This document shows, in pieces, positions 1-19,822 of a stretch of 20,000 nucleotides of DNA. Made by a program: the position numbers and the translations under genes. The DNA comes from Welwitschia mirabilis. Lineage: Eukaryota. Under the pieces are notes generated by a model, which was not told the DNA's origin, did not search any database, and was given only the letters and a program-made list of their open reading frames with translations. Each line of letters opens with the position of its first letter. Position 1 is the first letter of the stretch. The stretch is from NCBI GenBank assembly GCA_051453625.1, contig JBOZIK010000001.1:46988346-47008345 (forward strand), read 5' to 3'.

Positions 1-492
1 AAAATAGACTCTAAAAATAGCAAACACTAATAAATGTGGTAAACCCTAACAACCATATAAGACAGATGGAAAATGCTTGGTAAAGTTGAAGGAAGTGTTT
101 TTCTAGGTGTCATCCTACTAGTTATCTAGACGTCATAGGGGATAATGCCACATCATACATGTTCCACATCAACTGCCAAATTAGTCCAGTAAGTATCTTT
201 ATTGGTATGAATACTTTTATCATTAGTATAGTCATCCGGATGATGAGGTGGGTGATGGGCTTCATAAAGATGTTTTTTGTATCATATTAGCCTCTTTAAT
301 TACAGGATTGATGCTTCAGATAGGAAGTATTATAATTTGCTTTAAATGCTGTCAAATGTAATGGAGATTGCATGTTTTTATGATACTTATCTTAGCTCTC
401 CATTATCTTTGAAACTAAGCAAAAACCTATCTAATGTCCTACAAAAATAATTAAAATACCCTATCAAATATGTACAATTTGGTAGTGCAACA
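1..492 (-). repeat. 3' LTR of the outer element (partial; continues left of the window)
   Basis: Aligns by eye with ~19317-19822 (e.g. GAGATTGCATGTTTTT, AAAATACCCTATCA, TCCTACAAAA). Similarity stops at GTAGTGCAACA (492) / GTAGCACAACA (19822). Confidence 0.85.
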
Positions 493-1061
493 TAGTCATC
501 CACTTAGCCTTATCAGTCCTTAACAAAATTAGGTAAACAACCATAATTGTGAGCCAAATTAGCTAAAGATAAATCAATTAAGAAACTATGAAATCAACTC
601 AAAAATAATCTTAGGAATCTCAGAATGCACAAAACAAATGTTAAAAATAGATAATAAACATTGTACCTATGTAGTGTAAGTGGTCGTACTATCATCCTGG
701 TGGTCATTCGGATGATCGAGAGGATGACAGACTTAAAAATTAATCTTAAAAAGCATAATCTTATGAAAAACTTTTTCAAATAAATAAATATTAAAATGCA
801 TTGGTATTAACAACCCCTCCTCAAATGTACAGCATTTACTAAAAAAATAATCATGTATAACATAAGAAAAATCCTTACTGTAAAGTGCTAAAAGTGATAG
901 GTAAAATATATGCATAATATCCCAGCAATAAGAATGTACACCATGATGATACTCAGTAAATGATATGTCTATATAAATCATGAGTTTTCATACAATCCAC
1001 AAAGGAAAGATACATAACATAATATAATAGATCACTCCCCTCATCATGTTATAATGAACTC

Positions 1062-2284
1062 CTAATGCACAGCAGGCTCAGGTGCAGGTGGAGAAGAAGG
1101 AGGGTGCTTAAGATCTGTAGGGAAATGATGGTCAAATTATGTCATAATGGAGTGTACTATCTTATCTTCTTGTACTCTAATTACCTCTAAGAAGTTCACT
1201 GTCACATTGTGCTTGATACATGATATGTGCTAACACACATGAATCAACAGCTCCTCAGTGTGCTATCCTCTCCTCTTAACCGTGAAGATCCTTTACTCAA
1301 GTATGGTGATACATCAATCTATTGTCGCTCTAATGCTTTATGTCATCTCTAATAGAAGAGCCTAAATCTACTCAAAAATGATGTCAACCACAGATCTCTA
1401 TACCTAAACTCTCTCTACCTCTCCTAACATCTGAATTCTTATGTCCTATAGGTAACGAGTTAAAGTTTAAATATGTGTAAGTCTCTGCTCACCCATAGGC
1501 TTAGGTATATTGAAGCATCTAAACATGGATAAGAGGAGACAAGGACATCCTAGAGTCTATAGCTATCGTGCCTCGATCATACTCCTGAATCTCCTTCAAA
1601 TAAAGGTCAGTAGATCCATCTGCTCCTCTGCTTGAATAATGCTAACATTTGGAGGTGTACTATCATAACATGACTATCATGAAATAATAGACTGATGTTA
1701 CAAATTAGTTCTCTATGAATAATCCAATAGCCAGACAATAACTGTGTCACCAAAACTCCCTGCCTATCAATAGTCAAGTTAGCTGGAATATCTAAAACTG
1801 CACTATAACTACAGCTCTCCTTTATAATACTATCTAAATGGGTATGTGTACTCTTGATACCATTTAGATTAGTAATAGCATTAATATGATTTAGGAGAAT
1901 CATTATCTCATGGCCAGAAATGATAGCTACAATCATATCAACAACTTGGTTATGAACATCAAAACACCTTTCTATGTATATGGTATTGTAAAACTCTCTA
2001 GACTAAGAGATGTAATAAGCCTCCTTTACATCTATGATCTACTAGAGTTATAGATCTATCAACCTTTGATACACCTCTGCCTTTAGATGACTCATGAAGT
2101 CCTAAAAATGTCTCTCTACATGAATAGTAGCTATCTGAATCGAGAGAGACCTAGCCTCACGAGGTGAAGGGTGGACTGACTCTATCCACTAAACCTCCAG
2201 TGGTGTCAATGGTCTCATTTCTTGCTCTACTACCTTATCTTCTACCTTAGCCTAATTTGCTATATGTGTATGTGGCCTAATCAT
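1062..2284 (-). pseudogene. Athila env-like extra ORF (plant transposon protein, 'LVREFY' type), decayed
   Basis: From ATG at 2284 one frame reads MIRPH...IHVERHF*DFM...EAYYIS*SREFYNTIY...MIVAIISGHEIMILLNHINAITNL (includes the 1607-1936 ORF). It ends in a Pro-rich tail FPTDLKHPPSSPPAPEPAVH* at 1062, with at least one frameshift. The position between INT and the 3' LTR is as in Athila. Confidence 0.7.
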
Positions 2285-3149
2285 TTATAAATATGAAATG
2301 CATCATGCAAGGTTAAGTGGAGATAGCTAAAATGTGTCCCATGGAAGCTCGAAATGATCCCATAAATTGGTTTTTAATGTGTAAAAATCATAAAAATATG
2401 TCTTCCCCTCTTAAAAGTATCAATACATCCTGTATTACCTACTCATGTGAAGAAAAATGCAAAACATGAGAAAAAGTTGAAATGCATAAAAGTGGTGGAC
2501 CCCACATAACGTCAAAAATGAAAGTTCTTAAATCAAAAATCTAATTTAGTAGAATTATAGAGATTGTCATATTGATCAATTTACCCTAAAGGACCACTAC
2601 ATTGTGACTTATTATTTTTGAGAAAATAAGATTTAAAATTAAAAACCTAATTCCACCTTATAAAACATACAATTCAAGATATCTCACAAAATACATAGTG
2701 AAAATCAGATTCATAAGTACCAAATTGAAGATTATGAAAAATTGAATGGTATAGACAAGAACTACATGCTAAAAGCTCAAAAATAGAAGAAAAAAGTCAA
2801 AAATAATGAGGGAAAGAAAAATATTCCTCATTTTTCAAAATTCATTAAAAGTTTGTAATCTGAAATACTAATCTAGTGGGGGAAACTTTCAAGACATTAG
2901 TAAGTATAAAAGTAACTATTCTCTCTTAGAGGAAAAGATGAAAATAATAGAGAAATGAAAAAAATGAAGGAAAAAAATAGCCTATTTTTATCACATTATC
3001 ATCTAGTTGCATCGTCTAGACAATAGCCCTAGTATGACTCTCAGAAAAATCTTAGCTATTGTCCTCCATGTTGTTTAGACAACCATGTGGATGATAAGAC
3101 TTTGAAAAGTTTTAGAATAATGAAAATATTAGTTGAACAAGTTAGGCTC

Positions 3150-4080
3150 AGATATCAGCGTGACAAGATTAAGTTAATGAGAAGTACAATAAGAGTTATA
3201 ACACACATCAATAAGTAAAACACAAATTTTTCCGTACATAATTTTATAAGGTAAAAAACCAAGAGAATTATGCCAAGTAGTATGGTAAGTCTAAAGAACA
3301 TCGTTAAGCTCAGAAGCACAAGATTTCTTATTAACAAAAATAAGTTTTTGCAACATTTTCTTAATTTCGCTGTTTGCATTTTCAGCTTATCCATTAGTCT
3401 AAGGATGATAAGCATAAGCTACTCTATGTTCTATTCCAATGGACAAAAGAAGTTTTCTAAAAAGTTGACTAATAAAATAAGTTTTTTTAGTCACTAATAA
3501 TAATCTTAGGAAAATCAAATATCTAAAAAATATGAGTTTTAAGAAAATGAGGCATCATTCAAAGAAATAGGAATAGCTTTAGCCCATTTAATAATATAAT
3601 CTATAGCCACTAAAAATGTAATGTTTATCATGAAAAGGTGGGTCAACAATGCCTATAAAATTAATACCCTAACAATCAAAAGGTTCACATTTAATAATAG
3701 ATCTAAGAATCATCTCCTAAGCATGAATAAAGCTATCATAACACTGACAATAATAACACCTTCTGACAAAATCAAAAGAATCCTAAAAAAGGGTAGATCA
3801 ATAATAACCAGAATGAAGAATTTTCATAGCTATTTTTATCCATTAAAATGACCTCCACAAATACCACCATGATAAAGATGAAAGATTTTAAATTTTTCTC
3901 AATCAGGCATACATTTTCGCATAACTTGGTCTTTACATTTACAATATAAATGAGGCTCTATTCACTCATAGTCACCTATTCTATGTAGAAAATATTTGCA
4001 TTGATTATAATTCTAATGTTATGATGTTTTTGTTATAACAAGGTAATTAACAATATCCACATACCAAGGAGGATGATGAG
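3150..4080 (-). pseudogene. pol: Integrase of the outer element (decayed)
   Basis: Manual translation: PPWYVDIVNYL, CKDQVMRKC..LYHGGICGGHF (HHCC region), KWAKAI, AYHP*TNG*AENANSEIKKML, LGFLPYKIMYGKIC. Many stops and frameshifts. Confidence 0.85.
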
Positions 4081-4199
4081 TAGAAGATATAACAAAAAGT
4101 TACTCATCCGAAAAAGAATTATTAATGAAAGAATCATTAAGAGGAGAAGAAAGACAAGACAAATAATCAGCAACATAATTATGCTTCCTTGCTTTATTG

Positions 4200-5480
4200 A
4201 TGATGGTCGAACTAAATTCTTACATGAGGAGGATCAATCTAATCAATCTAGAACTAGAATCTTTTTTAGTCATAAGGTAACAAATAGCAACATGATTAGT
4301 ATAAACATTTGTATGACATTTGTATGAAAGCTTTAAAGATAATCTCTAAATGTATCAAGGCAAAAGATGATTGCTAACATTTCCTTCTCTGTAGTAGTGT
4401 AATTTATTTAAGTTCTAGACAGAGTTTTGCTATGGAAAGATATAACTTTAAAATCATTTTCATATTTTTGATAAAGTACCTGATCCATGACAAAATTACT
4501 AGCATCACATATCAATTCAAAATCTTTCTCTCAATCAGGTCACATTACAATAGAAGCATAAGAAAGTTTATGTTTAAGTCTATCAAAAGAAAGCTGACAA
4601 GATTCATTCTATTTAAATTTAGATTTTTTTTATAGTAACAAGTGAAGGGGTTTACAAATGTTTGCATAATTATGAATAAATCAATGATAAAAACCATAAT
4701 AACCAAGAAAAAATCTAACCTATTTTACATTAGTTGGAGAATTTAGGTTTTGAATAATATCAACCTTTTTAGGGCCCATCCTAATCCCATTTTTGAAATA
4801 TGATGAACTAAAACAATTTCACTTTCAACTAAAAATAATTTTTTTAAACTCAAATGTAGGCCACTAGAAATGCATCTATCAAGGAATTTCTCTAATATTT
4901 CTAAGATTTATTCAAAAGTTTCAGCATAAATAGATAAGTGATCCATAAAAATTTCTATCAAATCCTCTAATATATTAGAAAAAATATCCATCATAGGATG
5001 CTGAAAAGTACCAGAAGCATTACAAAGTCCAAAAGACATGCATCTAAAAGCAAAACTACCAAAAGGTAAAGTAAAAATAGTTTTAGCTTGGTCTTCACTA
5101 GCAATACAAACCTAATTGTAACCACTATATATGTCAAGAAAACAATAAAATGTATATCCCTAAATCCTATTAAGTATCTGATCAAGAAAAGTCAAGGATA
5201 GTGATCTTTTTTGGTTTCTTTATTTAATTTTCTAAAATCTATACACACCCTCCATTTCCCACCTCTCTTAGATGCTAATTTCAAAGGAATAACCCACTCA
5301 CTATTAGCTATGACATAAATGATTTCAACATCCATTAATTTTATGATTTCATCTTTAACAACTTGCTTAAGCACTAGATTAAGTCTATCTTGGGGTTGCC
5401 TAATAGGTTTTGCATTATCCTCAAGGTAGATTTTATGTTGAATAATTGAGGTAGGAATGACTGTCAAATCTTTATGGGAC
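4200..5480 (-). pseudogene. pol: Reverse transcriptase and RNase H of the outer element (decayed)
   Basis: ORF 5192-5467 (QHKIYLEDNAKPIRQPQDRLN...KWRVCIDFRKLNKETKKDHYP). Downstream remnants of MxFGLCNA, and the RNase H motifs CDASNF and NYTTTEKEMLAI. Confidence 0.92.
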
Positions 5481-6039
5481 TAAGAAAATGCATTTACCTT
5501 AGATTGAAAAAGAGAGATTAAGCTCGATTCTTGTTAAGGGAAAAGATTTTCATTAATGATCAAAGGTTTGTTTAGATCATTGTATAGAAAGATGTATTTC
5601 AGTTCACTAAGTAAAGATTTCATATTTAGATTTTTATTTTTTGTTAAATTTTTAGGAAAATCCATTATTGTCTCAAGTTGTCGTCTGGATGTTAATAGTG
5701 GACGACCACTCTTAAAATAAGAAATCTCAATTTTGCTTAGATCTCGGACTTCTACATAGTTCACAGACTCAGTTTTTTTACTCTACAGATCAAAATAATC
5801 AAATTCTAAATAGTCAAAATCAAGTTGATCTACATTGAAAATGTTTAAGTTGTCTACTTATAGTTGATCATCAAACAAAGTTGGTTTGTGAAGGATTGAC
5901 CATCTTTTTTCAAGTGGATGGTGCTGTAAAAATAAAGTTGGTTTCATTTCTTCTTTCACACTCAAATCATTACCTAAATATTTTTTAGCCGTATCAAACA
6001 CCCTTATTAAAGACTTCTTATTTCCTAAATAACACTCCA

Positions 6040-6343
6040 TAAAACCTGTTATTGTATCTATAATACACTAGGTTATTACATTAAAATCTCTACTTATAAG
6101 TAAAAGATAACCACCGTTATGTTCAACTACTATCATAACTACATCAATAGGGTAAAATTCTTCCTCAATATGAATGAATAAATCCTTAATTATGCCTTAG
6201 GATTTCTTAATAGATGTATCTGCCAATTCTACGACAATCCTTGTAGGCTCTATTCTATTTTCCAATCTAAGTAATTGAAAAATGTGCAAGGGCATAATGT
6301 TGATACTAGTTCAAATATTAATTAAGGATTTCTTAATCTGTCT
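6040..6343 (-). pseudogene. pol: C-terminal part of the outer element's aspartic protease
   Basis: Reads RQIKKSLINI*TSINIMPLHIFQLLRLENRIEPTRIVVELADTSIKKS*GIIKD, the decayed form of Athila ALxDLGASINxMP...LADRS. Confidence 0.85.
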
Positions 6344-6348
6344 ATCTT
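6344..6348. repeat. Left target-site duplication of the inner element (ATCTT; right copy ATTTC at 16276-16280)
   Basis: 5-mers directly abutting both LTR ends, 3/5 identical, both differences C/T. Removing the insert plus one copy restores the protease frame. Confidence 0.7.
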
Positions 6349-6764
6349 TGTAATGTTCCATTTTACTATTTTTCAATTACTTTGTATAAAATAGAAAATT
6401 TAAAATAATATGCCAAGATCCATATGAATAACAAGGAACAATTTAAAGAGAATAAGTATTTAATTATTAATAGCAGCAGATTACATTCTACATCATTAGC
6501 AAATAGCCTTGGACTAGTGGTTATGGGTAAAGACATGAATTATGATCTTACTCCCCCTCCAGGTATCCTTGGGGATCAGTCAAGATTGTCATTGGTTATA
6601 TCCACCTAGTATATCCACCCCACCTAATGCTATAGGCTTAAATTACATAATGAAGGAACACATCTTTTCATATTTAGGTCACATCCATTCACATATGTTG
6701 TTAATTATGCTTAATTAGCACTTAACACACTTAATTATATAATTAATGATTTTGGAACATTACA
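6349..6764 (-). repeat. 3' LTR of the inner chromovirus (416 bp)
   Basis: Starts TGTAATGTTCCA and ends TGGAACATTACA (perfect 12-bp terminal inverted repeat). About 80% identical to 15857-16275 by hand count. Confidence 0.95.
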
Positions 6765-6777
6765 TTCCCTCTTTTCT
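6765..6777 (-). other. Polypurine tract of the inner element
   Basis: Minus strand AGAAAAGAGGGAA immediately precedes the LTR start TGTAATG. Confidence 0.85.
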
Positions 6778-6949
6778 AGAAATCATGTTCATCCTTGAGA
6801 ACAGTCTCTCCTCAACTTACATCATTTCTGAATCCATGCTCCTCAGAGTTATTTTCTGTATCATCTACAAAACATAATAGAAAAGAACATATATCATTTA
6901 TTTAATAGTTACATTGATAATGCAACAAAAAATGGTAGATCAGGCTTAA

Positions 6950-7100
6950 TTAAAAAGTTTGGAAAAGGTCTCTTACGTGTACTCCCTGTTTTCTTATGTT
7001 TTTTAATCATAATGGATCCATTAAATAAGTACTTCTTTTATACTCTTATTTCTTAGTTGCCTGGATCTGGTACTTAGGATGTTTTCTAGCTAGAGGGCAA
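6950..7100 (-). pseudogene. Integrase C-terminal chromodomain (decayed)
   Basis: Reads ENILSTRSRQLRNKSIKEVLI*WIHYD*KT*ENRSTRKRPFPNFL, matching the ILD..LRNK.I..V.VQW..ATWE..P.LF pattern of Tekay-type chromodomains. Confidence 0.75.
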
Positions 7101-10100
7101 AAGTCAAATTGGATTTGAGCATGATATGTTACCAGTTCAAGATGTAGTCCTAGTTTCTATCTTAATGGTATGGTTTCATTATGCGCACATAAAAAACTGG
7201 ATGTATTTGGGACATTTGTGGAGGAAGCTCTAGTTTGTATGCTAGATTCCCAATCTTTTCAATAATCTTAAATGGACTATAGAACTGTGGTACTAATTTC
7301 TGTACTTTCCCATTTTCAAGGAGTTTCTTTTTGGCTTGATTCTTAGTAGTACTTGTTCACCTATTTGGAATATGCAGGACTGGTGCTTCTAATCGTAATA
7401 TTTCTTATATCTATGTTTTGCTACCTGTAGCTATCTTTTTATTTTATTTATTACTTCCTCCATCATCTTTAATTCTAAAGGCGCTATATTTTCTGATCTT
7501 TGTGAAGGATCTAACCATGTGATAGGGGTAGAATAGTTTTTACCATACATTGCTTTGAAGGGTAAATAGCAAATGGAAGTCTAAAGCGTTTGGTTATAAG
7601 TACAATTTGCCAAATATAGGTAGTTATCCCATTGTTTGGGCCTTCCTGCCACATGATACCTTAGAGTTTCTTCTAGTATATGATTTATTCTTTCTATTTG
7701 ATCATTTATTTCTGGGTGATATATAGTACTAAAACTGAGTTTGGTACCTAAGTGGTGGAAGAAGCTTTACCAAAACTCAGAGAAGAACTTTCGATTTCGA
7801 TCAAGTACTATAACCTATAGTGCATAATGTAATCTAAAGACTTCCTGTATAAAATGAAGGGCTAGCTCTTCTACTATATTAGTACTTTAAACTATGATAA
7901 AATGAACGATCTTGATTAACATGTCTACATAAATGAAAATTGCATCATGTTGTTTGTTAGTAAGGGGTAAATCGGTGATGAAGTCCATAGAAATCTCTTT
8001 CCATTTCCATTGTGGTATTCCCAATGGCTGAAGGAGACCAATGGGTCTTCCTTAATCGATCTTCATCTACTAACATATAGAATAATTACAGATGTATTAC
8101 TTTAAATCTACTTTCATTCTAGGCAAAAAGTAGGATTTCTATAATTGGTGGTAGTCTCTGACAAATTCTGGATGTCTTGCATATGTAACTTGATGTAGTT
8201 TAGACATTAGCTTTCTTCTCCATGGACCTAATGGAATGTATAGTCATCTTCTTTTTAGAAGGAATCCATTCTATGAGATCAGGTATATCTCTATTTCTTT
8301 TTCTTCTTGGACCTATTGATATATGTCTTTGAAGTGTGGATCATCAATCAAGGATGTTTTGAGAAAGGTGGATAAGTCAGATGTAACTATGATAGCTAAC
8401 ATACATTACATCTTGTTCAAAGCATTTTCTACTTTGTTTTCTTTACCAAGGTGTGTTATAACTTGAAGTCGTATTCTACTAGTAACTTACTCCATCTTCT
8501 CTGCCGCATATTTAAAATGGGTTAATTCTAGAAATCCTATCTAAGCTTTTATGATCTATTTTAAAAAGGAATTTGCTTCCCACAAGATAGTGCCTCTAAA
8601 CTTTCAAGGCATGCACTATGACTAACAATTTCAAATCATGTACGAGATAGTTTTCTCATGTTAGTTCAATTTCTGTCATTCATATGCAATCACCTAATCA
8701 TCTTAGCTAAGTATGACCCCTATTCCTCAAGTGGAAGCATCTATGGTGACTGTAAATGATTTGTTTATATCTATAATATTAAGGTCCTGTGATGTTATAA
8801 GTAGCAACTTTAATCTAAGAAATGCCTCCTTGCATTTGTCATCTAATTGAAATATATTTGTTGCTTTGGTTAAGTTTTTTAATAGTGCTGCAAGTTGAGA
8901 AAATCCTAAAACAAATTTTTAATAGAAGCTAGTCAATCCTAAGAAAATTTGTACTTGAGTGACATCCTTTAATTTTAGCCATTTCCTTATGACTTCTACT
9001 TTAGTCAGATCTATTGTTATTCCTCTACTAGAGATGATATGTCCTAAATAAGTGATTTCTATTTAAAAGAATTCACATTTGCTTAATTTTAGTTTAAATT
9101 TATACCTGGACAAGACCTGTAGAACTTTCTTCAAATGTGTCACATGATCATCATGGTTTTTAGAATATATTAGAATATCATCTAAAAATACAACCACAAA
9201 TTTATCCAAGTAAGGTCGAAAAACAGCATTCATTAAAATCATAAAAATGGCTGTAGTATTTGTTAAACGAAAAGGCATTACTATAAACTTGTAATGTCCA
9301 TATCTTGTTTTGAAAGCAGTCTTATAGACATATTCATCCTTGATGTGATTTGATGGTAGCTAGATTTTAAATTGATCTTTGAAAAGTACTTGGATCCTTG
9401 TAGTTGATCCAATAGATCATCGATTCATGGTAGTGAGTATCTATTCTTGATGTTTACTTTGTTGAGTTATCTGTAGTTAATTTAAAGCTACAAGGTATCA
9501 TCCTTCTTTTTAATAAAAAATATTTGTGCCCCCATGATAATACACTAGGGTACATCTTTCCTTCCAACAATAGCTATTCGATTTATAACTTTAGTTCTCT
9601 TAGTTCTACTACTGAGAAATGATAGGATGCTCTGGCTATTGACTGTGCTCTAGGGATTAAATCAATTGCATGCTATACTTTTTTCTTGGGCGGTGGTATT
9701 TTTGAATCTTCAAATACATCTGAGAATTCTTTTAGTTCTTCTAGTATAGAGTAATCTTCCTTATGATCTTCTGTCAGTACTAGAGCAATAAACACTTGTT
9801 TATTTTTGACAATTTTTGTGATTTGTTTAGGTGATGTTAAATATATCTTCTTACTCTTTCCCTCCCCTTTAAAGATTCATTTTCTGAATGAAGGAGATAG
9901 TTTCAAGGTTCTTTAGTGAAAGTTAATCTAAACATTATATTTAATTAAGAAAGGGATTCCTAAAATGACATGGTATTCTCTAATTTGAAAGACATAAAAC
10001 TTATCTCTAAGGTGTAAATCATGAATGGTAAAGTGATAAGGGCAGCAATCCCGTCTTATGTAAGAATACTATCCCCCTACAACTCCTATGGTAAACTCTT

Positions 10101-10250
10101 GTTCTTGAAACAGGTGATATTTAATTTGTAAAATAAAGATGTTGAAATGAAATTCTGTGATGCACTACTATTAACGAGGAATAAAATAGAAAAATATAAA
10201 ATATAACTACATAATTCTAAGATGGAGTGTTGATTATGAATTGTACCTAT
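7100..10250 (-). pseudogene. pol: pol (PR-RT-RH-INT) of the inner chromovirus, decayed
   Basis: PR LFLVNSSASQNFIS (~10140-10190). [41 protein letters not shown] (9063-9278). RH TIDAST..GVIL. INT GLLQPLGIPQWKWKEISMDFITDLP, FSTIYHPEINDQIERINHILEETLR, IGNLAYKLELPPQMSQIHPVF. Confidence 0.93.
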
Positions 10251-10299
10251 TTGAATGATAGCATAGACTCTTTTGAATGGCATGGACTGACTTTAAAGA

Positions 10300-11350
10300 G
10301 CTTGAGGCTGATTGTGCTGAGGAACATTTGGTGGTTGTGCTTTGGATGGACAGTTCCTGGTAATTGGACCTCTCATGTGGCACTCATGGCAAGTAAGATT
10401 AGTTCTATATGGCTTTCTTGCTGGTGGTGTGATTGAAGGAGGGTGCCTATCTCCTTAGTATAGTTGATCTATCCATCTATTTTCTTATCCTTGGAGATAG
10501 TGCCTTATTTTTTAATATGCATCTTCTATGGACTTGATTTCCAAAGTGCATAGAATGCTTTAAAGTTTGAGTGACAATGTTTCAATAAAACTGTTAATAA
10601 GCTACTTCTCTATAAAATTCTTTTGGTACTCCATGAGGCACTGGAATTTATATCAATGTTCATCTAATGGGTGTTTACCCCAGCGTGGGCACTAAAACTC
10701 CACCATTTAATCTTCAATAAAATCTTCTAAAATGAACTTCTTTTAAATTCTTCAGTGAAGGTATCCCATGATATCCTACATGAGTGTTTCTATTGATATC
10801 TGAACCACCATTCCTGTGTGTTTATGATACCATATACATCTATCTTTTTAGAGGTATATTTTGAAGTTCGAAATAATTCTCCAATTTTTGGATCTAAGAT
10901 ATGGCTTCCTCACTTATTCTAGCCTTGCCTTCAAAGGTCTTTAAGTGTATCATCTTTGCAATTTCCTCTCTTTCACATTGTTTAATATTGGGATGGTTAG
11001 ATCTATTTGTCAGGAAAACTTAAAGGTTGGCCTATGTATTTAATAATCTTATTTGAATGTTTTGGATGTCAATATCAGCTGTAAGAATATGCTATCCTGA
11101 TGTAGATGATGGTTCTTGAGATGCCCTCGGATTGTGTTCTATAGGTCTTTTTTCTAGGCGAGAAAGAAGGCTATTAGTCCTACTAGTTAGATGTTCATTT
11201 TGAGAGTGGATATGATTAATTTGGCCTTCTAGTGACTCAATTTGCTCATTGACCCTATGTTTCATGATGTGCTAGTGGGTTCAATGTCCTCTTGAACTCA
11301 TACACCTCTGCCTTATTCTATAAGTATTCTCTCTCTGCCTTTTCTCCTTT
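10300..11350 (-). pseudogene. gag: gag of the inner chromovirus, decayed (start approximate)
   Basis: TFEGKARISEEAIS*IQKLENYFELQ, TQEWW...ISWDTFTEEFKKKF, and a zinc-knuckle remnant CHECHMRGPITRNC (~10351-10392). Confidence 0.8.
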
Positions 11351-11509
11351 AGTGGTAATGTGTTTTTTTAGTATTGTTGGTGGTAGTTAGGGACTTGTAA
11401 CCACCTAGTAGTTAAGAAAATAGTTAGAGAAAACAATTTCTAGCAGTTATCATAAGAACCTTGCTAACATGAATAACAACTACCAAAGAGAATCTATGCG
11501 TTGCTAGGC

Positions 11510-12180
11510 ATCCAAGGATGGCATCATAAATCCAAGTGTGACATTGGACACCTGTGTGTACTAAGTGCGACATCAGACATCCAAGTGCAACGTCAGAGGT
11601 TTTAGAAGGATTTTGGGTCTTATGGAGTAACACTGAGGAGTGACAATGCATCTAGGATATGAGTGTGACATTGGACATCCAAGTACAATGTTGGGCTCCT
11701 AAGTGTGATGTTAGGCCATCAAGTGTGATGTCAAAGCCTATTGTACCGATGAACGAACAAAAGAGATGATGGTAGATTTTAGGTCTACGAGTGGTAAGTG
11801 CAATCTCATGCATCCAAGTACAATGTGGAACACCCAAGTGAGACATCGGGGTTCTTTAAGTAGGTGAGTAGAATAGGTGATGTTTGTGAAAAAATGGTAA
11901 AATCTAGGCCTATGAAGAATAAGTGCGATGTCTGTCACCCAAGTGCGACATCAAGCTTTAAAGGGCTTCGAAATATGATGTTGAATTTGGCAAGACCAAG
12001 TATGACATTGGCCTTCAAAGTGTGACATTGACCATTAAAGTGCGACATCGATATTCTAGGAGTACGACATCGGCATTCTAAAAGTACAATGTTGGCTCTG
12101 AAGTATGACATTAACCATCTGAGAATGTGACATCAACCTCTAAAGTGAGACATTGACCATCTAGAAGTATGATGTTGGGT
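11510..12180. repeat. Degenerate tandem array, ~20-22-bp unit, core AAGTRYRAYRTYRR, at least 22 copies
   Basis: Copies start at about 11534, 11563, 11583, 11661, 11681, 11701, 11721, 11796, 11816, 11836, 11921, 11941, 11971, 11998, 12018, 12038, 12060, 12082, 12101, 12123, 12143, 12165. Confidence 0.9.
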
Positions 12181-12305
12181 TTCAGTCCACTATAATTCAG
12201 GGCCTTAATCTATTCATGGTTAACTAGAGTTTTTTGCATTTAACTAAGATTTAGTTAACTATAGTTAACTCTTATTTTAGGTTAGGTTAAACCTTGGTCC
12301 ACCAC

Positions 12306-12313
12306 TATAAATA
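12306..12313 (+). promoter_or_regulatory. Candidate TATA box (CTATAAATAG context)
   Basis: Matches the plant TATA consensus and lies upstream of the plus-strand gene model. Function inferred. Confidence 0.4.
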
Positions 12314-12496
12314 GCTCCATGATCCCCTTATTTTTTACTTCTTTTATTACATGCCTCTATAATCAAATTGGTAGCTCTTTCATTTATTATTTCAATTATC
12401 TATTTCTTTGATACTTTTATTTTCTTCTTTTCTTTTATTTTAATATTTTCCTTTTTCTTGTTTCTTATATAGGCCCTTCCACAACCTTCTTTTGCC

Positions 12497-12504
12497 TATA
12501 AATA
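12497..12504 (+). promoter_or_regulatory. Candidate TATA box (CCTATAAATAC context)
   Basis: Matches the plant TATA consensus, ~260 bp upstream of ATG 12761, followed by a pyrimidine-rich leader. Confidence 0.5.
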
Positions 12505-12760
12505 CGAGTTCCCTCTAGCATTTGTAGATGTACTTCTTCCTCTGGATTCTAGACTTTGCCTTACCATTTCTTAAAATTATACTAGTGTCAGATCTACAGA
12601 GTTAGAAATACAGCAATGCACTTAGGAACAAGGATTCTCTTGGATCTTTTCCTCTAATATATTAGATCTATATGGCTTTCCATCTTTCTATCTTTGTCAT
12701 CATACTATTCTTTTCATCCTGGATTTCTTTTACTCTTCTTTTAATCTACACACTACTACC

Positions 12761-15672
12761 ATGATCCATTCTCATCATCATCTAATTCAGATTTTGGAAG
12801 AGAGCATTCAACTAGTCTTTGAGATGAGTAAAGGTAATCATGTTCCTCCTAAAGTTTTTCATTGTGATGAGGACTTTTATTATTTCTTAGTTAATCACTT
12901 GGATGATTTTGTATGTGTGTAGGAGATGAATACCCACTGCCATGAGATCTCTATTGCTAATTTTACCACTCCATATTTTGCAGCTTCTGGGGAGCTAATT
13001 GCTGGTAGAGCCTTTCTTCATGATCAGGTGAATGAGATTCCTACTTATATAATTTACTTATTCCCCTTTATAACTAGTGGAGTTTTTTGAGATTGGGCCT
13101 CCGTTGTCTATTCTTCCAGCCTTTCCAAGTTAACCCACTTGAAGAGGAATGGAGATAGGAAGAAGTGTTTATATGGCCATGTCTTAATAGGTTTATATTT
13201 TACTTCTATGGATCGAAGGGATCTACAGCAATTTAGGGCTATTTATAAAGATTCCTCCTTTGTTTTGTCTCTTCATAAGATCCTTGCTTGATCTTTATTA
13301 CATTCTCGTTCTTTCTTATCTATGTAGGTAAAGGTTCTGGGAGTTATGAATTTGGAGAAACATCTCAGGGTACTTTTCCTATTCTATCTGAGATATGAGT
13401 TTTACTGAGGAATCTTGCTATTAAGTATATTTATGATAACTCTGACTTTTTCATTATTTGATATTTGTAGATAAGGAAGAATTCAAGATCTGGTGCCTCT
13501 TCCTGCCAGAAACATGATAAAGCTCCAATAAATTACCTTATGCCTATGGAACTAGAAAAGGAAGAGGATGCACCCCTTAGCTTTTCTCGGTGACACTGGC
13601 CCTGTGGGGTATTACCTATTACCATCTCTTCTTTTTNNNNNNNNNNNNNNNNNNNNNNNNNNNNNNNNNNNNNNNNNNNNNNNNNNNNNNNNNNNNNNNN
13701 NNNNNNNNNNNNNNNNNNNNNNNNNNNNNNNNNNNNNNNNNNNNNNNNNNNNNNNNNNNNNNNNNNNNNNNNNNNNNNNNNNNNNNNNNNNNNNNNNNNN
13801 NNNNNNNNNNNNNNNNNNNNNNNNNNNNNNNNNNNNNNNNNNNNNNNNNNNNNNNNNNNNNNNNNNNNNNNNNNNNNNNNNNNNNNNNNNNNNNNNNNNN
13901 NNNNNNNNNNNNNNNNNNNNNNNNNNNNNNNNNNNNNNNNNNNNNNNNNNNNNNNNNNNNNNNNNNNNNNNNNNNNNNNNNNNNNNNNNNNNNNNNNNNN
14001 NNNNNNNNNNNNNNNNNNNNNNNNNNNNNNNNNNNNNNNNNNNNNNNNNNNNNNNNNNNNNNNNNNNNNNNNNNNNNNNNNNNNNNNNNNNNNNNNNNNN
14101 NNNNNNNNNNNNNNNNNNNNNNNNNNNNNNNNNNNNNNNNNNNNNNNNNNNNNNNNNNNNNNNNNNNNNNNNNNNNNNNNNNNNNNNNNNNNNNNNNNNN
14201 NNNNNNNNNNNNNNNNNNNNNNNNNNNNNNNNNNNNNNNNNNNNNNNNNNNNNNNNNNNNNNNNNNNNNNNNNNNNNNNNNNNNNNNNNNNNNNNNNNNN
14301 NNNNNNNNNNNNNNNNNNNNNNNNNNNNNNNNNNNNNNNNNNNNNNNNNNNNNNNNNNNNNNNNNNNNNNNNNNNNNNNNNNNNNNNNNNNNNNNNNNNN
14401 NNNNNNNNNNNNNNNNNNNNNNNTCGGTGACACTGGCCCTGTGGGGTATTACCTATTACCATCTCTTCTTTTCCTTTATTTTCTCCTCTTTTTTTTTGAC
14501 ATAGGTTTTTTCTTGTTTTATTATAGGTTCTTCGCATAGAGACTTTGGTCAAGGAGGATATGGACTTTACTACCTCTGGAGAAGACTTTCCTTTGACAGC
14601 TAAGGAAGGAGTGCATTACTGTAAGTGAAACTTTTCCTTCTGTTCCTTCGACTAGCCTCTTCATGGATTTATTATTCCCTTTTAATTCTCAAGTGGAAGA
14701 GGTACTTAATAATTTTAATACCTTAATGTATTAGGAGGATATTTCCTATTCCACCTCCTATTTTCAGCCTCCAGGTCAAAGTCCTCTTGTTGCTTACCCT
14801 TCTCTAGAGCCTTTTCGCCACTTGCCTGTAGCTCCACAATCCATTGTAAATGAATAGGACCAAGTATCTTATTGCACCAATCAACTTCTGTCAGTGGTGG
14901 AGATCTTGTACCCTAAGGTTAAGGAGTTGATGGATCCGTTAGAGGATTATCAGTCCTTTTTCAGCCTTTTTCATACATAAGTCCTGCATCCTTCACACCT
15001 AGATGATGTCTACATCCATCATTGATCCAAGCCAGCAAATGTATCATAGCACTTTAAGTACAACCATTTTACTCATTTCACTTCCCATTATTCTTTATAG
15101 CATAAATGAACTACTTCATCTAAGATTTCTACAACATGGTTTATATGATGGAGTCATTTTACTGCATGGCTCATCATAGAATTGAAGCGCGGAAGTCCAT
15201 GAGTAGTTAGCTCCAGATGTTGAAGAATGAGGTGGAAAACATTCGTTTATCAGAGAAGAGATCATGGGTAGATGCTTTACATATAGCTACTATAGAAGAA
15301 ATTTAGGCTACCTTATCTACTCAGCTGATAGAGAGTGAAAGGATAATTCAAGCTTATGAGGATTGTTTGGCCATTACTATTGACGACATCAATGTGTTAT
15401 ATCATGGCAAAGAGCTCTTGAAGGAACATCTGTTAGGGACTTTAGTTAATTATAGTAAGCTTTATATGAAGCTCTATAAGTGGTCATATTCCATTACTAG
15501 GGTAGATTCTATACCGACTTCTTCTTCAGTTGAAATCAATACTACAGCAGTTCCTACATAGCCTACTGAGATGAAAGTAGTTTCAGGAGACATGAAGCCT
15601 CTTATCCCAGGCGTGAAGGGTCACAACCCTGTTACCTTCTCTATGGAGGATCTCCTTCCTCCTCAGCAGTGA
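12761..15672 (+). pseudogene. Antisense, intron-containing extra gene of unknown function inside the chromovirus leader (decayed, ~590 codons)
   Basis: Exon model 12761-13250, 13328-13392, 13471-13608, 14527-14620, 14694-15672 joins in phase. One frameshift near 14960-15000. Internal stops are TAG/TAA/TGA, consistent with C>T/G>A decay. Contains the 15367-15561 ORF. Confidence 0.65.
13637..14423. other. Assembly gap (787 N)
   Basis: Run of N flanked by an identical 49-mer at 13587-13635 and 14424-14472. Confidence 1.
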
Positions 15673-15840
15673 TGATTGGTTTTTCTTGTCAAGGTATCAT
15701 GCACCTTATTTTCACTAACACCTTATTTTCTTTAATCATCATGTTATTATTCTTTGATGCATTGTTTGGACTTTGGCTATTTAATTTATAAACTGAGTTC
15801 TTTCCTTGTTTTTCTCAAGTAGTGGATTACTACTTGTTAT

Positions 15841-15854
15841 TGGCTTTGATACCA
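15841..15854 (-). other. Primer-binding site of the inner element (tRNA-iMet)
   Basis: Minus strand TGGTATCAAAGCCA, one G>A from canonical TGGTATCAGAGCCA, 2 nt from the LTR end. Confidence 0.92.
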
Positions 15855-15856
15855 AA

Positions 15857-16275
15857 TGTAATGTTCCATTTTACTAATTTTAGATTACTTTACATAAAAA
15901 GGAACATTTAAAATAATATAATAAGATTCATAGGAATAACAAGGAATAATTTAAAGAAAATAAGGCTTTTACTATTTATAGCAGTAGATTACATTCCACA
16001 TCATTAGCAAGCAGCTTTGGACCAGTAGTTATAGGTAAATATGTGGACTACGACTTTAGTCCCTCTCCTAGGCTCTTTTGAAGATTAACCAAGGTTATCA
16101 TCGATTACATCCACCTAGTCTATCCAAATCCACCTAATACCGTAGGCTTATATTATATAATGAAGAGACACATCTTTCCATATTTGGGTCACACCCATTT
16201 ATATCTCTTGTTAACCATGCTCAGTTAGCGCTTAACACACTTGATTATACAATTATAAAATTTTGGAATATTATA
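15857..16275 (-). repeat. 5' LTR of the inner chromovirus
   Basis: Starts TGTAATGTTCCA and ends TGGAATATTATA (decayed TGGAACATTACA). Colinear with 6349-6764. Confidence 0.95.
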
Positions 16276-16280
16276 ATTTC

Positions 16281-18154
16281 CTTCTAAATTGACACTAACA
16301 ATTATTGCCCCCGGATCTTTAAACTTTAGACATTTCTGTAAAACTAAGTTATTAATGGATTGAACTACGAACACTTTATTAGGGATGGTTCATTTTTGTT
16401 TCCTCCTAATCAAGTCTTTCCACAACTTAGAATACTTAGAGTTCTCTTGTAAAAGTTTCTAAAATTATAAATAGATACTCACATTTTACATTAAGGTTTT
16501 TAAATGTTCATCAAAGGTAGGATTTGTGTTTAATTTATTAAGCCAAGGGGTAGCAGATTTCTTATAAGAAGAACTTTTCTTTTTTTTGCTTAAAGGATAA
16601 GGAAAAGAATGATTTTTCAAAATTTCTATATCCTCTTATTCATTATTTTTATCACTTTGAGATGTTGAAGCCTTTAGGTTGGGTAAAGATTGAGTGGTAA
16701 GTGACCCTTATGGTATTTGATTAGTAAGCATGGGTTGTTACAAAATACTCACAATATTTTCAATGTTGAATTTTGTTCTTTCTTGTGTTTTTTTCAATTC
16801 ATCAATGGAACTTCTAAGTGGATCAACTTGGTTTTGTGAGTTGGATGCTTACTTGATTATTTAAGTTGTTTGATTGAAAATTTATGTTTTAAAATCTCTT
16901 TTTAAATGGTTGAAAATTAGGATGATTTATTTGAAAATTTTTGAAGTTGGATTATCTATTCATCCTAAGTTGAAAATTATTGTAATTTTAAATTTGATTT
17001 TGGTTTTGGTTTTCATTAAAGTTTGAAGATCTTTGATTGAAAGAACACACTTCTTCATAAATTATTTCTTTATATTTTGACAATAAAGGACACTCTTTCA
17101 TAACATGATAGGTGTCTTAATGTAAATCACAAGTTAGAGCTACAACTACACTCTTCTCTATTGTTACCTTTGCATCTAAAATCATCTAAGTGTATTTTTA
17201 TAAAGTTGAGGTGAGATTCTTAATGACATTTTTTGTTTCATTTACAGTTATTATTTCTTTATTTTTGGCTTAACCTCTTTAAGATCTTTAATGATTTAAC
17301 CTATAGTTTAATCTTCTCTAAATGAGGTAACTCACTTTCAGTAACTCTTTCAACACTTTTTAAGCATTTTATAAAGTAAGATTCAATAAATTTCCTTTAC
17401 ACGAAAAATCAACTAGCTGCTTAGTTTGATTGTTGAGTCCACTATAAAAGTAGTCTACCAATTCTTTTTGAGAAAAATCATCTACAAGGTTCAAATGTAA
17501 AGCAACAAAAAATCTCTCATAGATAAAGGCATAATCTTCATTAATCTATTGTTGGAAGTTGGTTATTTCTTTCTTACATTTTCTAATGTTAGTTTCACTT
17601 ATGAATATCTTAATAAAATCTTTTTAAACTAACTCCATGATTTTAAACTCTTATAAGGAACCATTCTTAACCAAATTTTATCTTTACATTTTAAAGTGAT
17701 GGGAAAAATAACTATGTAAGTTAGATCACTTATGCTTTTCTTACCATTTTTTAGAGTAAGCACTAACTGTTTGATGCCGACAATTGTTGTAAAGGGTCTT
17801 TATCATGTTCACCACTATAAATGGAATAAACATTTAGGTTTATAAGTTCGATACCATTAACAGGAGGTAAATCAAAAGGAGTTTGAATTTCACATTTTTT
17901 TTATTAGCAACTAGTTCTCTAAGAGTGATATTTGCGTTAGGGTTTATAGGTGTAGTCATAGGAGTTCCAATAACAATGAAGGGATTAGGCAAAGTGACTT
18001 GATTTTACTTTTGCAATGAGCTAGACGTATTTAAAAATTGAAAAATATCATTGAAATAATCTTCTAAAAAGTTTTCTTTCACAAAATTAGATTTTAAAGA
18101 TATAAATGTAGAAACTTCTGGAATTTTTAAAACTTACATATATTTGGTGTGCAT
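16281..18154 (-). pseudogene. gag: gag and protease N-terminus of the outer element, decayed (start approximate)
   Basis: KEITNFQQ..ERF..ELVDYFYSGLNNQTKQLVDFSCKG (Athila-type gag core, ~17340-17580), Cys/His remnant CDLH*DTYHVMKECP (~17085-17132), and LKFKDPGAIIVSVNLE directly before the insertion. Confidence 0.82.
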
Positions 18155-18701
18155 TCCTTAGTTAAATTTGAAGTTAATTAAACCTTCTTAGATGTTTTCC
18201 TCTATGAACAGCTACTCTCTAATATTTTTCTTTCTTACTATATTTTATCATGTCCCAGCATACTCAGTTTTGATGCTTAATGTATCATCCCTATAGTTAT
18301 TTGAATGATAGTCTGGATGATAGAAACATAGAAAATACCAAAAACAAATTTTAAAAAACATAGAAAACAGAAATGTAAAATGATAGATATAAGAAATACA
18401 GAAAGTAGAAGATCGTCCATCTGTTTCATCTAAATGAAAGAGGAGATGATAAAAAAACCCTAAAAATTTTAAGAAAGTGATAAACTAAAAAAACTCAAGG
18501 CATAAAGCCCATCAACATTGCACGTCATCTAGATGATGAAGCAGATGATAAAGTATTTATTTTGAAATGTAAAGACAGAAACTATGAAAAGAAAAACCTA
18601 TGCCATTGTAACTAAAAATATAGCATTGCTACAAGTAAATATCTAAACTGGAATCCAAACACTTACCTGAATAATAACAACTCTCAAGCTTCAAGCAGCA
18701 T

Positions 18702-18719
18702 TCCCCAATAACGATGTCA
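18702..18719 (-). other. Degenerate primer-binding site of the outer element (tRNA-Asp type)
   Basis: Plus strand TCCCCAATAACGATGTCA versus the tRNA-Asp 3' end TCCCCGGCAACGGCGCCA: 12/18 match, all six differences C>T or G>A. Lies 5 nt from the LTR terminus TGATG. Confidence 0.8.
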
Positions 18720-18724
18720 AGATA

Positions 18725-19822
18725 TGATGTATATTTGTGCAAATAATTATGCTTGAGAAGATCCTGTCATTCACAAATAAAATAGATATTCTACACAACA
18801 TAATACACTAATATAGATGGGAGTGAACTTGAATGTTGTAATCCATTGAAGGCCGAGGCTAGAAGAAAGAGAATTAATTTTAACAAGAAACACTTACATA
18901 TTCTAGCAATAAAAATAAATTGCAATATATAAAATCATAATGCAATACAATTATGCAAAGTTAATCTAGGAAAGAAAAGAAATAATGCACCTAAACTAAA
19001 AATGCTCAACCTTAATAAAAGTTGCCCTCATAACCTATATCTCTTAAGAAACTGTCAGTAAATTGGAAGCAATATAAACTATGACAGATAAGTAACAAAA
19101 AGCAAAAAAAATGAAAAAGAGTTCATTGTATTGATCCCAAACCAAATTCATGTTACAAAGTAGCCATACCTCAATGGAGAAAGCACAACCCAAAATTAAA
19201 TAAGAATTCTCTCTGCAGCTACTAAGGATGGATCTTCGACACTTTGATCTCCTGTCACGAGAATTTTTCATGCAAGTGAAGAAGATGGAGTTGAAGATGG
19301 AATCAATACTTATTGATAATAGACACACAAATAATAAAATAGATAAACAGGTATAGGAACAACCCTAATGACCATGCAAGAGACATACAGACAAATGGAA
19401 AAAGTTAGGTGAATGTTTAGTGGAGTGTTATAATAGATGTCATTCTGCTAGGCATCTAGATGATATAGGAGACGATGCCACCTCATAAGTATTCCATGTC
19501 AATTGTCAGATTAATCACAGTTAGCATCCTCATTAGCTTCAACTGGTCTATCATCCGTATAGTCATTCGAATAATGAGGTGAATGATAGGCTTTTATAAA
19601 GGTTAATCTGATTCATCAGTCTTAATGTTTGCAAGAAGTTTACTTCAAAATAGAAAGTATTATGAACTACTCTAAATACTACAAAACTTCATAGAGATTG
19701 CATGTTTTTGTATCTTTCATATTATCTCTCCACTATCATGGAAATCTAGTGTAAATCTATTTAATATCCTACAAAACTACTCAAAATACCCTATCATATA
19801 TATACAAGTTCGTAGCACAACA
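18725..19822 (-). repeat. 5' LTR of the outer element (~1.1 kb)
   Basis: TG at 18725 next to the PBS and CA at 19822 where homology with 1-492 ends. Imperfect terminal repeat TGATGTAT / GCACAACA. Confidence 0.82.

Follow-up and report, generated by a model that had tools for sequence, protein, structure and literature searches.

A composite box of four half-sites recurs along an ATHILA-like Ty3/gypsy retrotransposon of Welwitschia mirabilis and may be read by a protein

We analysed a stretch of the Welwitschia mirabilis genome (GenBank assembly GCA_051453625.1, contig JBOZIK010000001.1, positions 46,988,346 to 47,008,345 of the forward strand; hereafter 'the window', meaning the whole stretch of 20,000 nucleotides). 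The window contains two long terminal repeat (LTR) elements, one nested in the other and marked by direct repeats. The outer, ATHILA-like element lies on the minus strand and carries eleven copies of a composite box of 38-41 nt, in which two direct heptamers (half-sites), 12 bp apart, are followed by two inverted ones; the two in the middle adjoin, giving a near-palindrome of 14 bp. These boxes are real, occur far above chance and are specific to the outer element. From their sequence and spacing, we tentatively interpret the box as a cis-acting module for recognition, specific to one abundant family of ATHILA-like (non-chromovirus Ty3/gypsy) plant retrotransposons, a reading that we consider quite possible though short of probable.

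Eleven composite boxes in the outer element

The whole window was scanned with a transition-tolerant pattern, RTYRTYY-N4-7-RTYRTYYRRAYRAY-N4-7-RRAYRAY, which specifies 28 positions. Four places matched without a mismatch, eight with at most one and eleven with at most two, and the count stayed at eleven when three were allowed. In 200 first-order Markov simulations of the window, the corresponding means were 0, 0, 0.01 and 0.255. The arrangement was present at all eleven places at which the original prediction had put it and, in the comparison with simulated sequence that the prediction had proposed, its density was far above chance (11 against 0.01 expected at two mismatches or fewer). The bounds of one box had to be changed: the fifth, placed by the prediction at 3061-3095 with its left spacer shortened, is better drawn at 3058-3095 with two 5-nt spacers and no mismatch. 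Allowing four mismatches added matches at 6848, 18296, 18638 and 19538 (2.2 expected), of which 18296 and 19538 are shadows of true boxes shifted by 12 nt, and 6848 and 18638 are at background level.

The boxes are listed below with their left and right spacer lengths (nt) and their mismatches out of 28; no strand was assigned to any of them.

109..146, no strand, box in the left (3') LTR; spacers 5/5; 1 mismatch; partner of 19439-19476
219..256, no strand, box in the left (3') LTR; spacers 5/5; 2 mismatches; partner of 19550-19587
691..728, no strand, box in the 3' untranslated region, ~200 nt upstream (sense) of the inferred start of the 3' LTR; spacers 5/5; 0 mismatches
2998..3038, no strand, box after the integrase core; spacers 6 and 7; 1 mismatch
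3058..3095, no strand, box after the integrase core; spacers 5/5; 0 mismatches; reads ATTGTCC-tccat-GTTGTTTAGACAAC-catgt-GGATGAT
5667..5706, no strand, box in the pol frame, in the linker between the protease-like and reverse transcriptase regions; spacers 6/6; 1 mismatch
18284..18321, no strand, box in the leader, downstream (sense) of the site resembling a primer-binding site; spacers 5/5; 0 mismatches
18412..18450, no strand, box in the leader; spacers 6/5; 2 mismatches; near a AAACCCTAA word at 18455-18463
18511..18549, no strand, box in the leader, ~160 nt downstream (sense) of the site resembling a primer-binding site; spacers 6/5; 2 mismatches
19439..19476, no strand, box in the right (5') LTR; spacers 5/5; 1 mismatch
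19550..19587, no strand, box in the right (5') LTR; spacers 5/5; 0 mismatches

Nine of the eleven boxes are independent, 109/19439 and 219/19550 being LTR partners. Their nine places comprise two per LTR, three in the leader, one in the pol linker, two after the integrase and one before the 3' LTR. All eleven boxes lie in the outer minus-strand element, and the nested element (6301-16299, including a run of 787 N) gave no match at three mismatches or fewer, as had been predicted. The nested element, whose composition is similar, can therefore be used as a control from within the window.

Single half-sites (RTCRTCY or RGAYGAY) numbered 45 in the whole window, 21 of them inside boxes, versus 15.3 +/- 3.9 expected. 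With the boxes set aside, the outer element had 10 over 10,001 nt and the nested element 14 over 9,212 nt. Palindromes of 14 nt of any sequence, with at most one mismatch, were not enriched (50 versus 45.7 expected). Since neither lone half-sites nor generic palindromes were clearly enriched outside the boxes, the enrichment belongs to the composite box.

Conserved half-sites and free spacers of fixed length

Among the nine independent boxes, half-sites were identical at 681 of 1008 compared positions (68%). Identity was 30% in the spacers (30/100; boxes with two 5-nt spacers only) and 28% in the 10-nt flanks (205/720), which indicates that past selection acted only on the half-sites and their spacing. 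Both spacers are 5 nt long in seven boxes, the others being 6/7 (2998), 6/6 (5667) and 6/5 (18412 and 18511), so that 16 of the 22 spacers have a length of 5. The arms of the nine independent boxes are largely complementary (91 Watson-Crick and 21 G-T pairs of 126), whilst the spacers are not (9 Watson-Crick and 10 G-T pairs of 47 positions), and the unit as a whole consequently fails as a plain hairpin or cruciform. This agrees with the earlier claim that spacer length is kept whilst spacer sequence is free and does not pair.

The same prediction held that most variants collapse by C>T or G>A changes to four copies of GTCGTCC, and this was not supported by the data. At positions 3-4 of the 44 half-sites we found CA 29 times, CG 6, TG 5 and TA 4. 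Symmetric decay of CpG predicts roughly equal numbers of CA and TG, in place of the 29:5 observed (binomial p = 4e-5). Strand bias does not rescue GTCGTCC, because producing the CA type would take G>A in both forward half-sites but C>T in both reverse half-sites. The counts point instead to a half-site that, when the element inserted, was probably (A/G)TCATCC in most cases, with the CG variant a minority.

From centre to centre, successive half-sites are 12, 7 and 12 bp apart, so that 31 bp, or about three turns, separate the first from the last; simple geometry would thus place all four half-sites within roughly one third of the helix circumference. The first base was G in the second half-site of 7 of the 9 independent boxes versus 6 of 27 other half-sites, where it was mostly A (Fisher p = 0.005). 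This bias makes the box an oriented unit and not a perfect fourfold repeat. The boxes all lie in one orientation relative to the element and presumably go back to one origin. The central tetranucleotides of the eleven boxes were CTAG (four times), CCGG, TCGG, TCGA, TTAG, CTGG, TTGA and CTAA, and were self-complementary in six (CTAG four times, CCGG and TCGA). CTAG occurs in both LTR partners at 109 and 19439 and is therefore older than the insertion.

Two other origins of the repeated unit were discarded. An insertion resembling a miniature inverted-repeat transposable element was ruled out, as there is neither a target-site duplication nor a common flank. The boxes are also not part of a larger tandem unit, there being no such array and no alignment between flanks.

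The outer element and the setting of its boxes

The G+C content of the window is 31% and its CpG observed/expected ratio 0.22, the latter showing only prolonged methylation of this copy in the past. Pfam domains were sought in read-through translations in which stops were written X. On the minus strand of the outer element these gave RVT_1 at ~4826-5198 (E 1.7e-12) and RT_RNaseH_2 at ~4311-4602 (E 4e-24). The following features were delimited.

4311..5198, minus strand, reverse transcriptase (RT) and RNase H of the outer element (RVT_1 and RT_RNaseH_2), with stop codons and frame shifts
3213..3860, minus strand, integrase-like residues (GGHF.., ..CYYCQ, ..HPxTNGxAE.., YGKxC), recognised by eye
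18725..19822, minus strand, 5' LTR of the outer element; both bounds estimated, one from the site resembling a primer-binding site, the other from the end of LTR-LTR similarity (492 matching 19822) and from family contigs
1..490, minus strand, 3' LTR of the outer element, truncated by the start of the window
18707..18719, minus strand, TGACATCGTTATT, resembling a primer-binding site (PBS); 6 transitions and 0 transversions relative to the ATHILA PBS TGGCGCCGTTGCC
~6301..16299, minus strand, nested Ty3/gypsy element, with LTRs at 6349-6745 and 15857-16255 that are 82% alike

The words at 3213-3860 we take to be integrase, and protease-like words were seen by eye at ~5980-6310. The integrase-, protease- and gag-side stretches of the outer element gave nothing credible in Pfam even at E <= 1, and PF03078 was not detected in its minus-strand frames. 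The order of RT, RNase H and integrase-like residues along the minus strand is that of Ty3/gypsy, and from this sequence evidence the outer element is assigned to Ty3/gypsy. The closest proteins found for the start of its RT were a fragment of 313 aa, 37% identical, and a hypothetical protein from Vitis, 53% identical over 30% of the query; the latter, as the nearest named match, indicates an element of plant type.

The outer LTR pair is ~75% alike (320-492 versus 19650-19822; start-to-start distance 19,330). Local alignment extended the homology to 1-~620 versus 19316-~19933 and was convincing to ~492. We placed the LTR end at 490/19822, where similarity stops (492/19822) and both copies read ...AACA; many family contigs part from the window just after 492, with 236 and 180 loose ends and heterogeneous continuations. 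At the other end, the minus strand from 18731 to 18707 reads ...TACATCA-TATCT-TGACATCGTTATT, with a 5-nt AT-rich gap after ...CA. In Brassicaceae, the ATHILA 5' junction consists of the LTR terminus, an AT-rich gap of 3-6 bp and the PBS TGGCGCCGTTGCC (transfer RNA for Asn/Asp), as described in preprint 10.64898/2026.03.20.713144. The transition-degenerate PBS pattern matched the window twice versus 1.05 expected, which is not significant alone, and the site is supported only by its place. Altogether, the predicted layout of LTRs, leader, protease-RT linker, post-integrase region and 3' untranslated region held in outline.

The two LTR boxes occupy the interval 236-384 nt from where the LTR is inferred to start, and just upstream of the one at 19550-19587 stands a TATA-like TTTATAAAAG (19590-19599, sense strand). 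The box at 5667-5706 reads SGRPLLTSRRQLETIM in the frame running from the protease-like stretch into the start of RT. The 313-aa relative aligns on both sides of it (EISYF before; LK.L..ELKY.FL after) and has a different, longer peptide at the place of the box. The box thus sits in a variable pol linker and is not a by-product of a conserved peptide. When peptides spanning this box were searched for, only two distant proteins were found near the length of the query and none among the shorter ones.

Several smaller observations concern the surroundings of the boxes. One single half-site, GTCATCC, lies at 495-501, 5 nt from the inferred junction of internal region and 3' LTR, in a moderately purine-rich (sense-strand) stretch where the polypurine tract is expected. 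Words resembling the telomere repeat were present in both LTR copies, ~60 nt from an LTR box (41-49, AAACCCTAA; 19361-19368, AACCCTAA), and AAACCCTAA recurs at 18455-18463, 5 nt beside the leader box 18412-18450.

The nested element matched the Pfam families RVT_1, RNase H, Integrase_H2C2 (a zinc finger) and SH3_Tf2-1, and a chromodomain-like word was noticed in it by eye only. It contains decayed tandem repeats at 11998-12166 (unit 20-22 nt, ~2-3 copies per row, 73-83% matches). The run of 787 N also lies within it, at 13637-14423, and is flanked by a 49-nt stretch (13587-13635) identical to 14424-14472. These identical flanks look like the overlapping edges of an assembly gap and not like a biological repeat.

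An abundant family

Reads from two DNA runs (X1 and X5) and two RNA runs were compared with positions 1-6300 at a likeness of at least 80%. Summed word depth, which is not a copy number, ranged from hundreds to tens of thousands for look-alike contigs versus 7-9 for contigs identical to the window. The family of the outer element is therefore very abundant. RNA reads on 1-6300 numbered 102 and 47 in the two runs, none of them at least 95% alike, and coverage was otherwise negligible. In run X14, the match of 5 RNA reads broke off just before 689 and that of 4 just past 733, with a consistent unrelated sequence outside. Matching only 689-733, these reads indicate a transcribed look-alike of the box in another context in this organism. 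In the LTR, the highest summed depth fell in the bin 421-630, and for many contigs and RNA reads the match begins only at 433 and is lost after 492; the LTR-terminal piece 433-492 seems to be shared with an even more abundant repeat.

Relatives were also sought elsewhere. A protein search with the RT stretch of the outer element found no relative in viral contigs, and the motif CATCC-N5/6-RTCRTCYRGAYGAY-N5/6-GGATG was found in 0 viral contigs, this strict pattern also missing all the decayed copies in the window. It matched five metagenome and five genome-contig loci, which were set aside as single sites and not relatives; eight of them have 51-72% GC and the five genome contigs are labelled as bacterial. 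The other two of the ten are L007 (46% GC) and L002 (22% GC, the match lying within a repeat-coding open reading frame (ORF)). On L002, an unrelated metagenome contig, a tandem array of AAAAAGGAC-like units occupies 5790-5920, and in the ORF at 5953-6873 repeat-coding DNA imitates the box at 6098-6159 with three direct and three inverted GTCATCC half-sites.

Interpretation of the box

Were the box a recognition module on duplex DNA, its four half-sites, mostly (A/G)TCATCC, would be bound by a sequence-specific protein in the form of a dimer of dimers. Half-site sequence and spacing, and not the spacer letters, are the selected features, and the boxes sit in weakly constrained parts of the element. 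By analogy with the repeated-motif boxes of Sirevirus elements, they would most likely act on transcription or on the chromatin state of the element. Conserved half-sites, fixed unpaired spacers and a symmetric centre would, in combination, best fit a symmetric multimer on duplex DNA, and the symmetric centre in particular favours a duplex site since the loop bases of a hairpin would need no symmetry. To this extent, the unpaired spacers of kept length agree with the original prediction that a protein site fits better than a plain hairpin, without amounting to proof. We infer the protein reader, its multimeric state and the consequence of binding from the sequence and do not observe them. A host factor seems more likely as the putative reader than a protein encoded by the element.

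Several points weigh against this interpretation. No candidate for the reader protein was found in the outer element by Pfam or homologue search, and to our knowledge no nameable plant transcription-factor site resembles the half-site. The mutually complementary arms allow a hairpin with a 5x5 internal loop, an internal loop of fixed size would also preserve spacer length, and the self-complementary centre could equally serve RNA loop-loop pairing. Half-site identity between LTR partners was 19/28 and 21/28 versus an LTR average of ~75%; after insertion the boxes have thus decayed at least as much as their surroundings, and this copy gives no sign of continued constraint. The family-level reading of the boxes covers position 252 alone, among the 40 places listed of 2265 that differ. 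There, A in place of G accounted for 2994/3127 of the depth in X1 and 5140/5396 in X5 (~96%), which turns GGGTGAT into GGATGAT; the mismatch is therefore private to this copy and the half-site is kept in the family, a point in favour of the interpretation.

The most serious alternative, which we nevertheless regard as rather doubtful, is that the box is a structure of RNA or complementary DNA: a hairpin of two stems, separated by a 5x5 internal loop and capped by a self-complementary apical loop, serving in dimerisation or packaging or else as a small-RNA hotspot that draws silencing. Arm complementarity, the six of eleven self-complementary centres and the three leader boxes just past the PBS-like site would all suit it, and several copies fold to the nested two-stem shape, the box at 691 doing so on both strands (-10.6 and -15.6 kcal/mol). 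The palindrome region of Sirevirus elements, moreover, forms hairpins and is a hotspot of small interfering RNA (siRNA) (PMC4728375). The predicted folds are weak, however, on the sense strand (-3.9 to -11.8 kcal/mol; z -0.19 to -2.68, with z <= -2 in 2/11) as on the plus strand (-5.3 to -15.6 kcal/mol; z 0.00 to -2.38, with z <= -2 in 3/11), and neither strand is clearly favoured. As the copies are decayed, this low predicted stability weakens the hairpin only a little. Stems of 5-7 AU-rich pairs are also far below the known length of Dicer substrates. Further evidence against a hairpin comes from the spacers, which are unpaired and free in sequence, and from the boxes within pol and before the 3' LTR, which are unexpected for a packaging signal.

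Recognition by a protein of the element itself, either the post-integrase product or the gag-side ATHILA domain, would make the boxes part of a sequence-specific self-recognition system of the VANC/VANDAL (anti-silencing) type or of a tether. The original prediction had offered this model, as a speculation, for the env-like product; we consider it improbable. It would account for the confinement of the boxes to the outer element and their absence from the nested one, and also for their position mostly in non-coding or weakly constrained parts, like that of VANC motifs in VANDAL elements (PMC5735166, PMC10398659). According to a 2026 atlas paper, VANC and the poorly characterised gag-side Athila domain are both predicted to form compact coiled-coil pentamers (PMC13547354). 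The post-integrase region spans ~2.5 kb (3000 to 490), matches no Pfam family and contains only decayed ORFs in this copy, in which an env-like protein could not be confirmed. Against an encoded reader, its longest stop-free stretch has 131 codons, the read-through of 1031-2290 had no homologue at E <= 0.001, and RT and RNase H were the only Pfam families in the outer minus-strand frames, with PF03078 undetected.

It is similarly improbable that the boxes are functionless, a short palindromic segment having been spread by template switching during reverse transcription and then persisted. Reverse transcriptases do switch templates at repeats, and the common orientation and shared asymmetry of the boxes (G first in the second half-site, 7/9 versus 6/27) would fit common descent. 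Duplicates should nonetheless retain their spacers, yet spacers are as dissimilar as flanks (30% versus 28%) whilst half-sites are 68% identical despite decay. The pattern requires selection on half-sites in an active lineage, and a spacer length of 5 was kept in 16/22. Least probable of all is a four-half-site box at every module boundary, read by an element-encoded multimer that marks self copies for anti-silencing, for tethering or integration targeting, or for co-packaging; if true, it would be the first sequence-specific self-recognition system described for any LTR retrotransposon of plants and would parallel VANC/VANDAL among retroelements.

Comparison with known repeated motifs

The closest likeness to the proposed recognition box is found in Sirevirus elements, which belong to Ty1/copia. 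Their repeated motifs are palindromic with dyad symmetry, number 8-32 copies per element and mostly have a CGG-CCG core; within the LTR they occupy its upstream half, ahead of the TATA box, and env-containing elements have them in front of the env-like gene as well (Bousios et al. 2010, PMC2829016). Such palindromes act as hotspots of siRNA, can fold into hairpins and are still conserved among the oldest elements (Bousios et al. 2016, PMC4728375). The boxes of maize were first noticed as proximal pairs, and Sirevirus boxes have been proposed to be cis-regulatory sites (PMC2829016, PMC4728375). The boxes described here resemble them in dyad symmetry (arm pairing 91 + 21 of 126), in being family-specific with at least eight copies (nine places and eleven copies, in a window that lacks part of the LTR sequence) and in their presence in both the LTRs and the internal region after pol. 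One Sirevirus box, that of Usier (GTCGGACGTCCGAC), is likewise a 14-nt palindrome of similar make-up (PMC2829016).

There are also clear differences. The host element here is Ty3/gypsy and not Ty1/copia, and the box has four half-sites and two unpaired spacers of fixed length in place of a single palindrome. The CGG-CCG core is missing from most copies: the centre is CTAG in 4/11 boxes and contains CG in 3/11, and the half-sites lack CGG. The boxes are spread over the leader, the pol linker and the 3' untranslated region, and seem not to be clustered in the upstream half of the LTR before the TATA box, and this decayed copy has no CpG island.

VANC target motifs are simple short words in tandem arrays, unlike the four-part palindromes here. 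They are read by a protein in a sequence-specific manner, lie in non-coding parts of one VANDAL family and affect silencing (PMC5735166, PMC10398659). VANDAL elements, however, are DNA transposons that encode VANC, and no such protein was detectable in this decayed copy. Among Ty3/gypsy-type elements, Drosophila gypsy carries the Su(Hw) cluster, a repeated motif bound by a host protein, with AT-rich separators, in the leader after the PBS. That cluster differs in being non-palindromic, single and in an insect element, whereas only three of the nine places here are in the leader. The SL1 dimerisation hairpin of human immunodeficiency virus 1 (HIV-1), also in the leader after the PBS, combines stem, internal loop, stem and self-complementary apical loop. 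SL1 is present in one copy, and its internal loop is conserved and its stem stable, in contrast to the nine places, free spacers and weak predicted stems found here. For ATHILA or other plant Ty3/gypsy elements, no description of such a box was found in the accessible literature, supplements aside, and the words 'palindrom' and 'hairpin' are absent from the accessible text of the ATHILAfinder preprint (10.64898/2026.03.20.713144).

Significance

Taken at the level of sequence, the boxes appear to extend the palindromic repeated motifs of the Sirevirus type, in a composite form, to an ATHILA-like Ty3/gypsy family, and are most likely a repeated protein-recognition box. Sirevirus boxes, which have been described as a hallmark of that lineage, are thought to be both a regulatory region and the main target of host small RNA, and a box of this kind in Ty3/gypsy would suggest that such boxes arose repeatedly. 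If so, they would be a general solution for plant retroelements with an extra region after pol. The fixed geometry, with centres 12, 7 and 12 bp apart, offers a concrete probe for the reader protein. The family of the outer element accounts for a large part of this genome. In Arabidopsis, ATHILA elements are important to the evolution of centromeres (10.64898/2026.03.20.713144), and a family-specific recognition site in an ATHILA-like family would, for this reason, be of wider interest.

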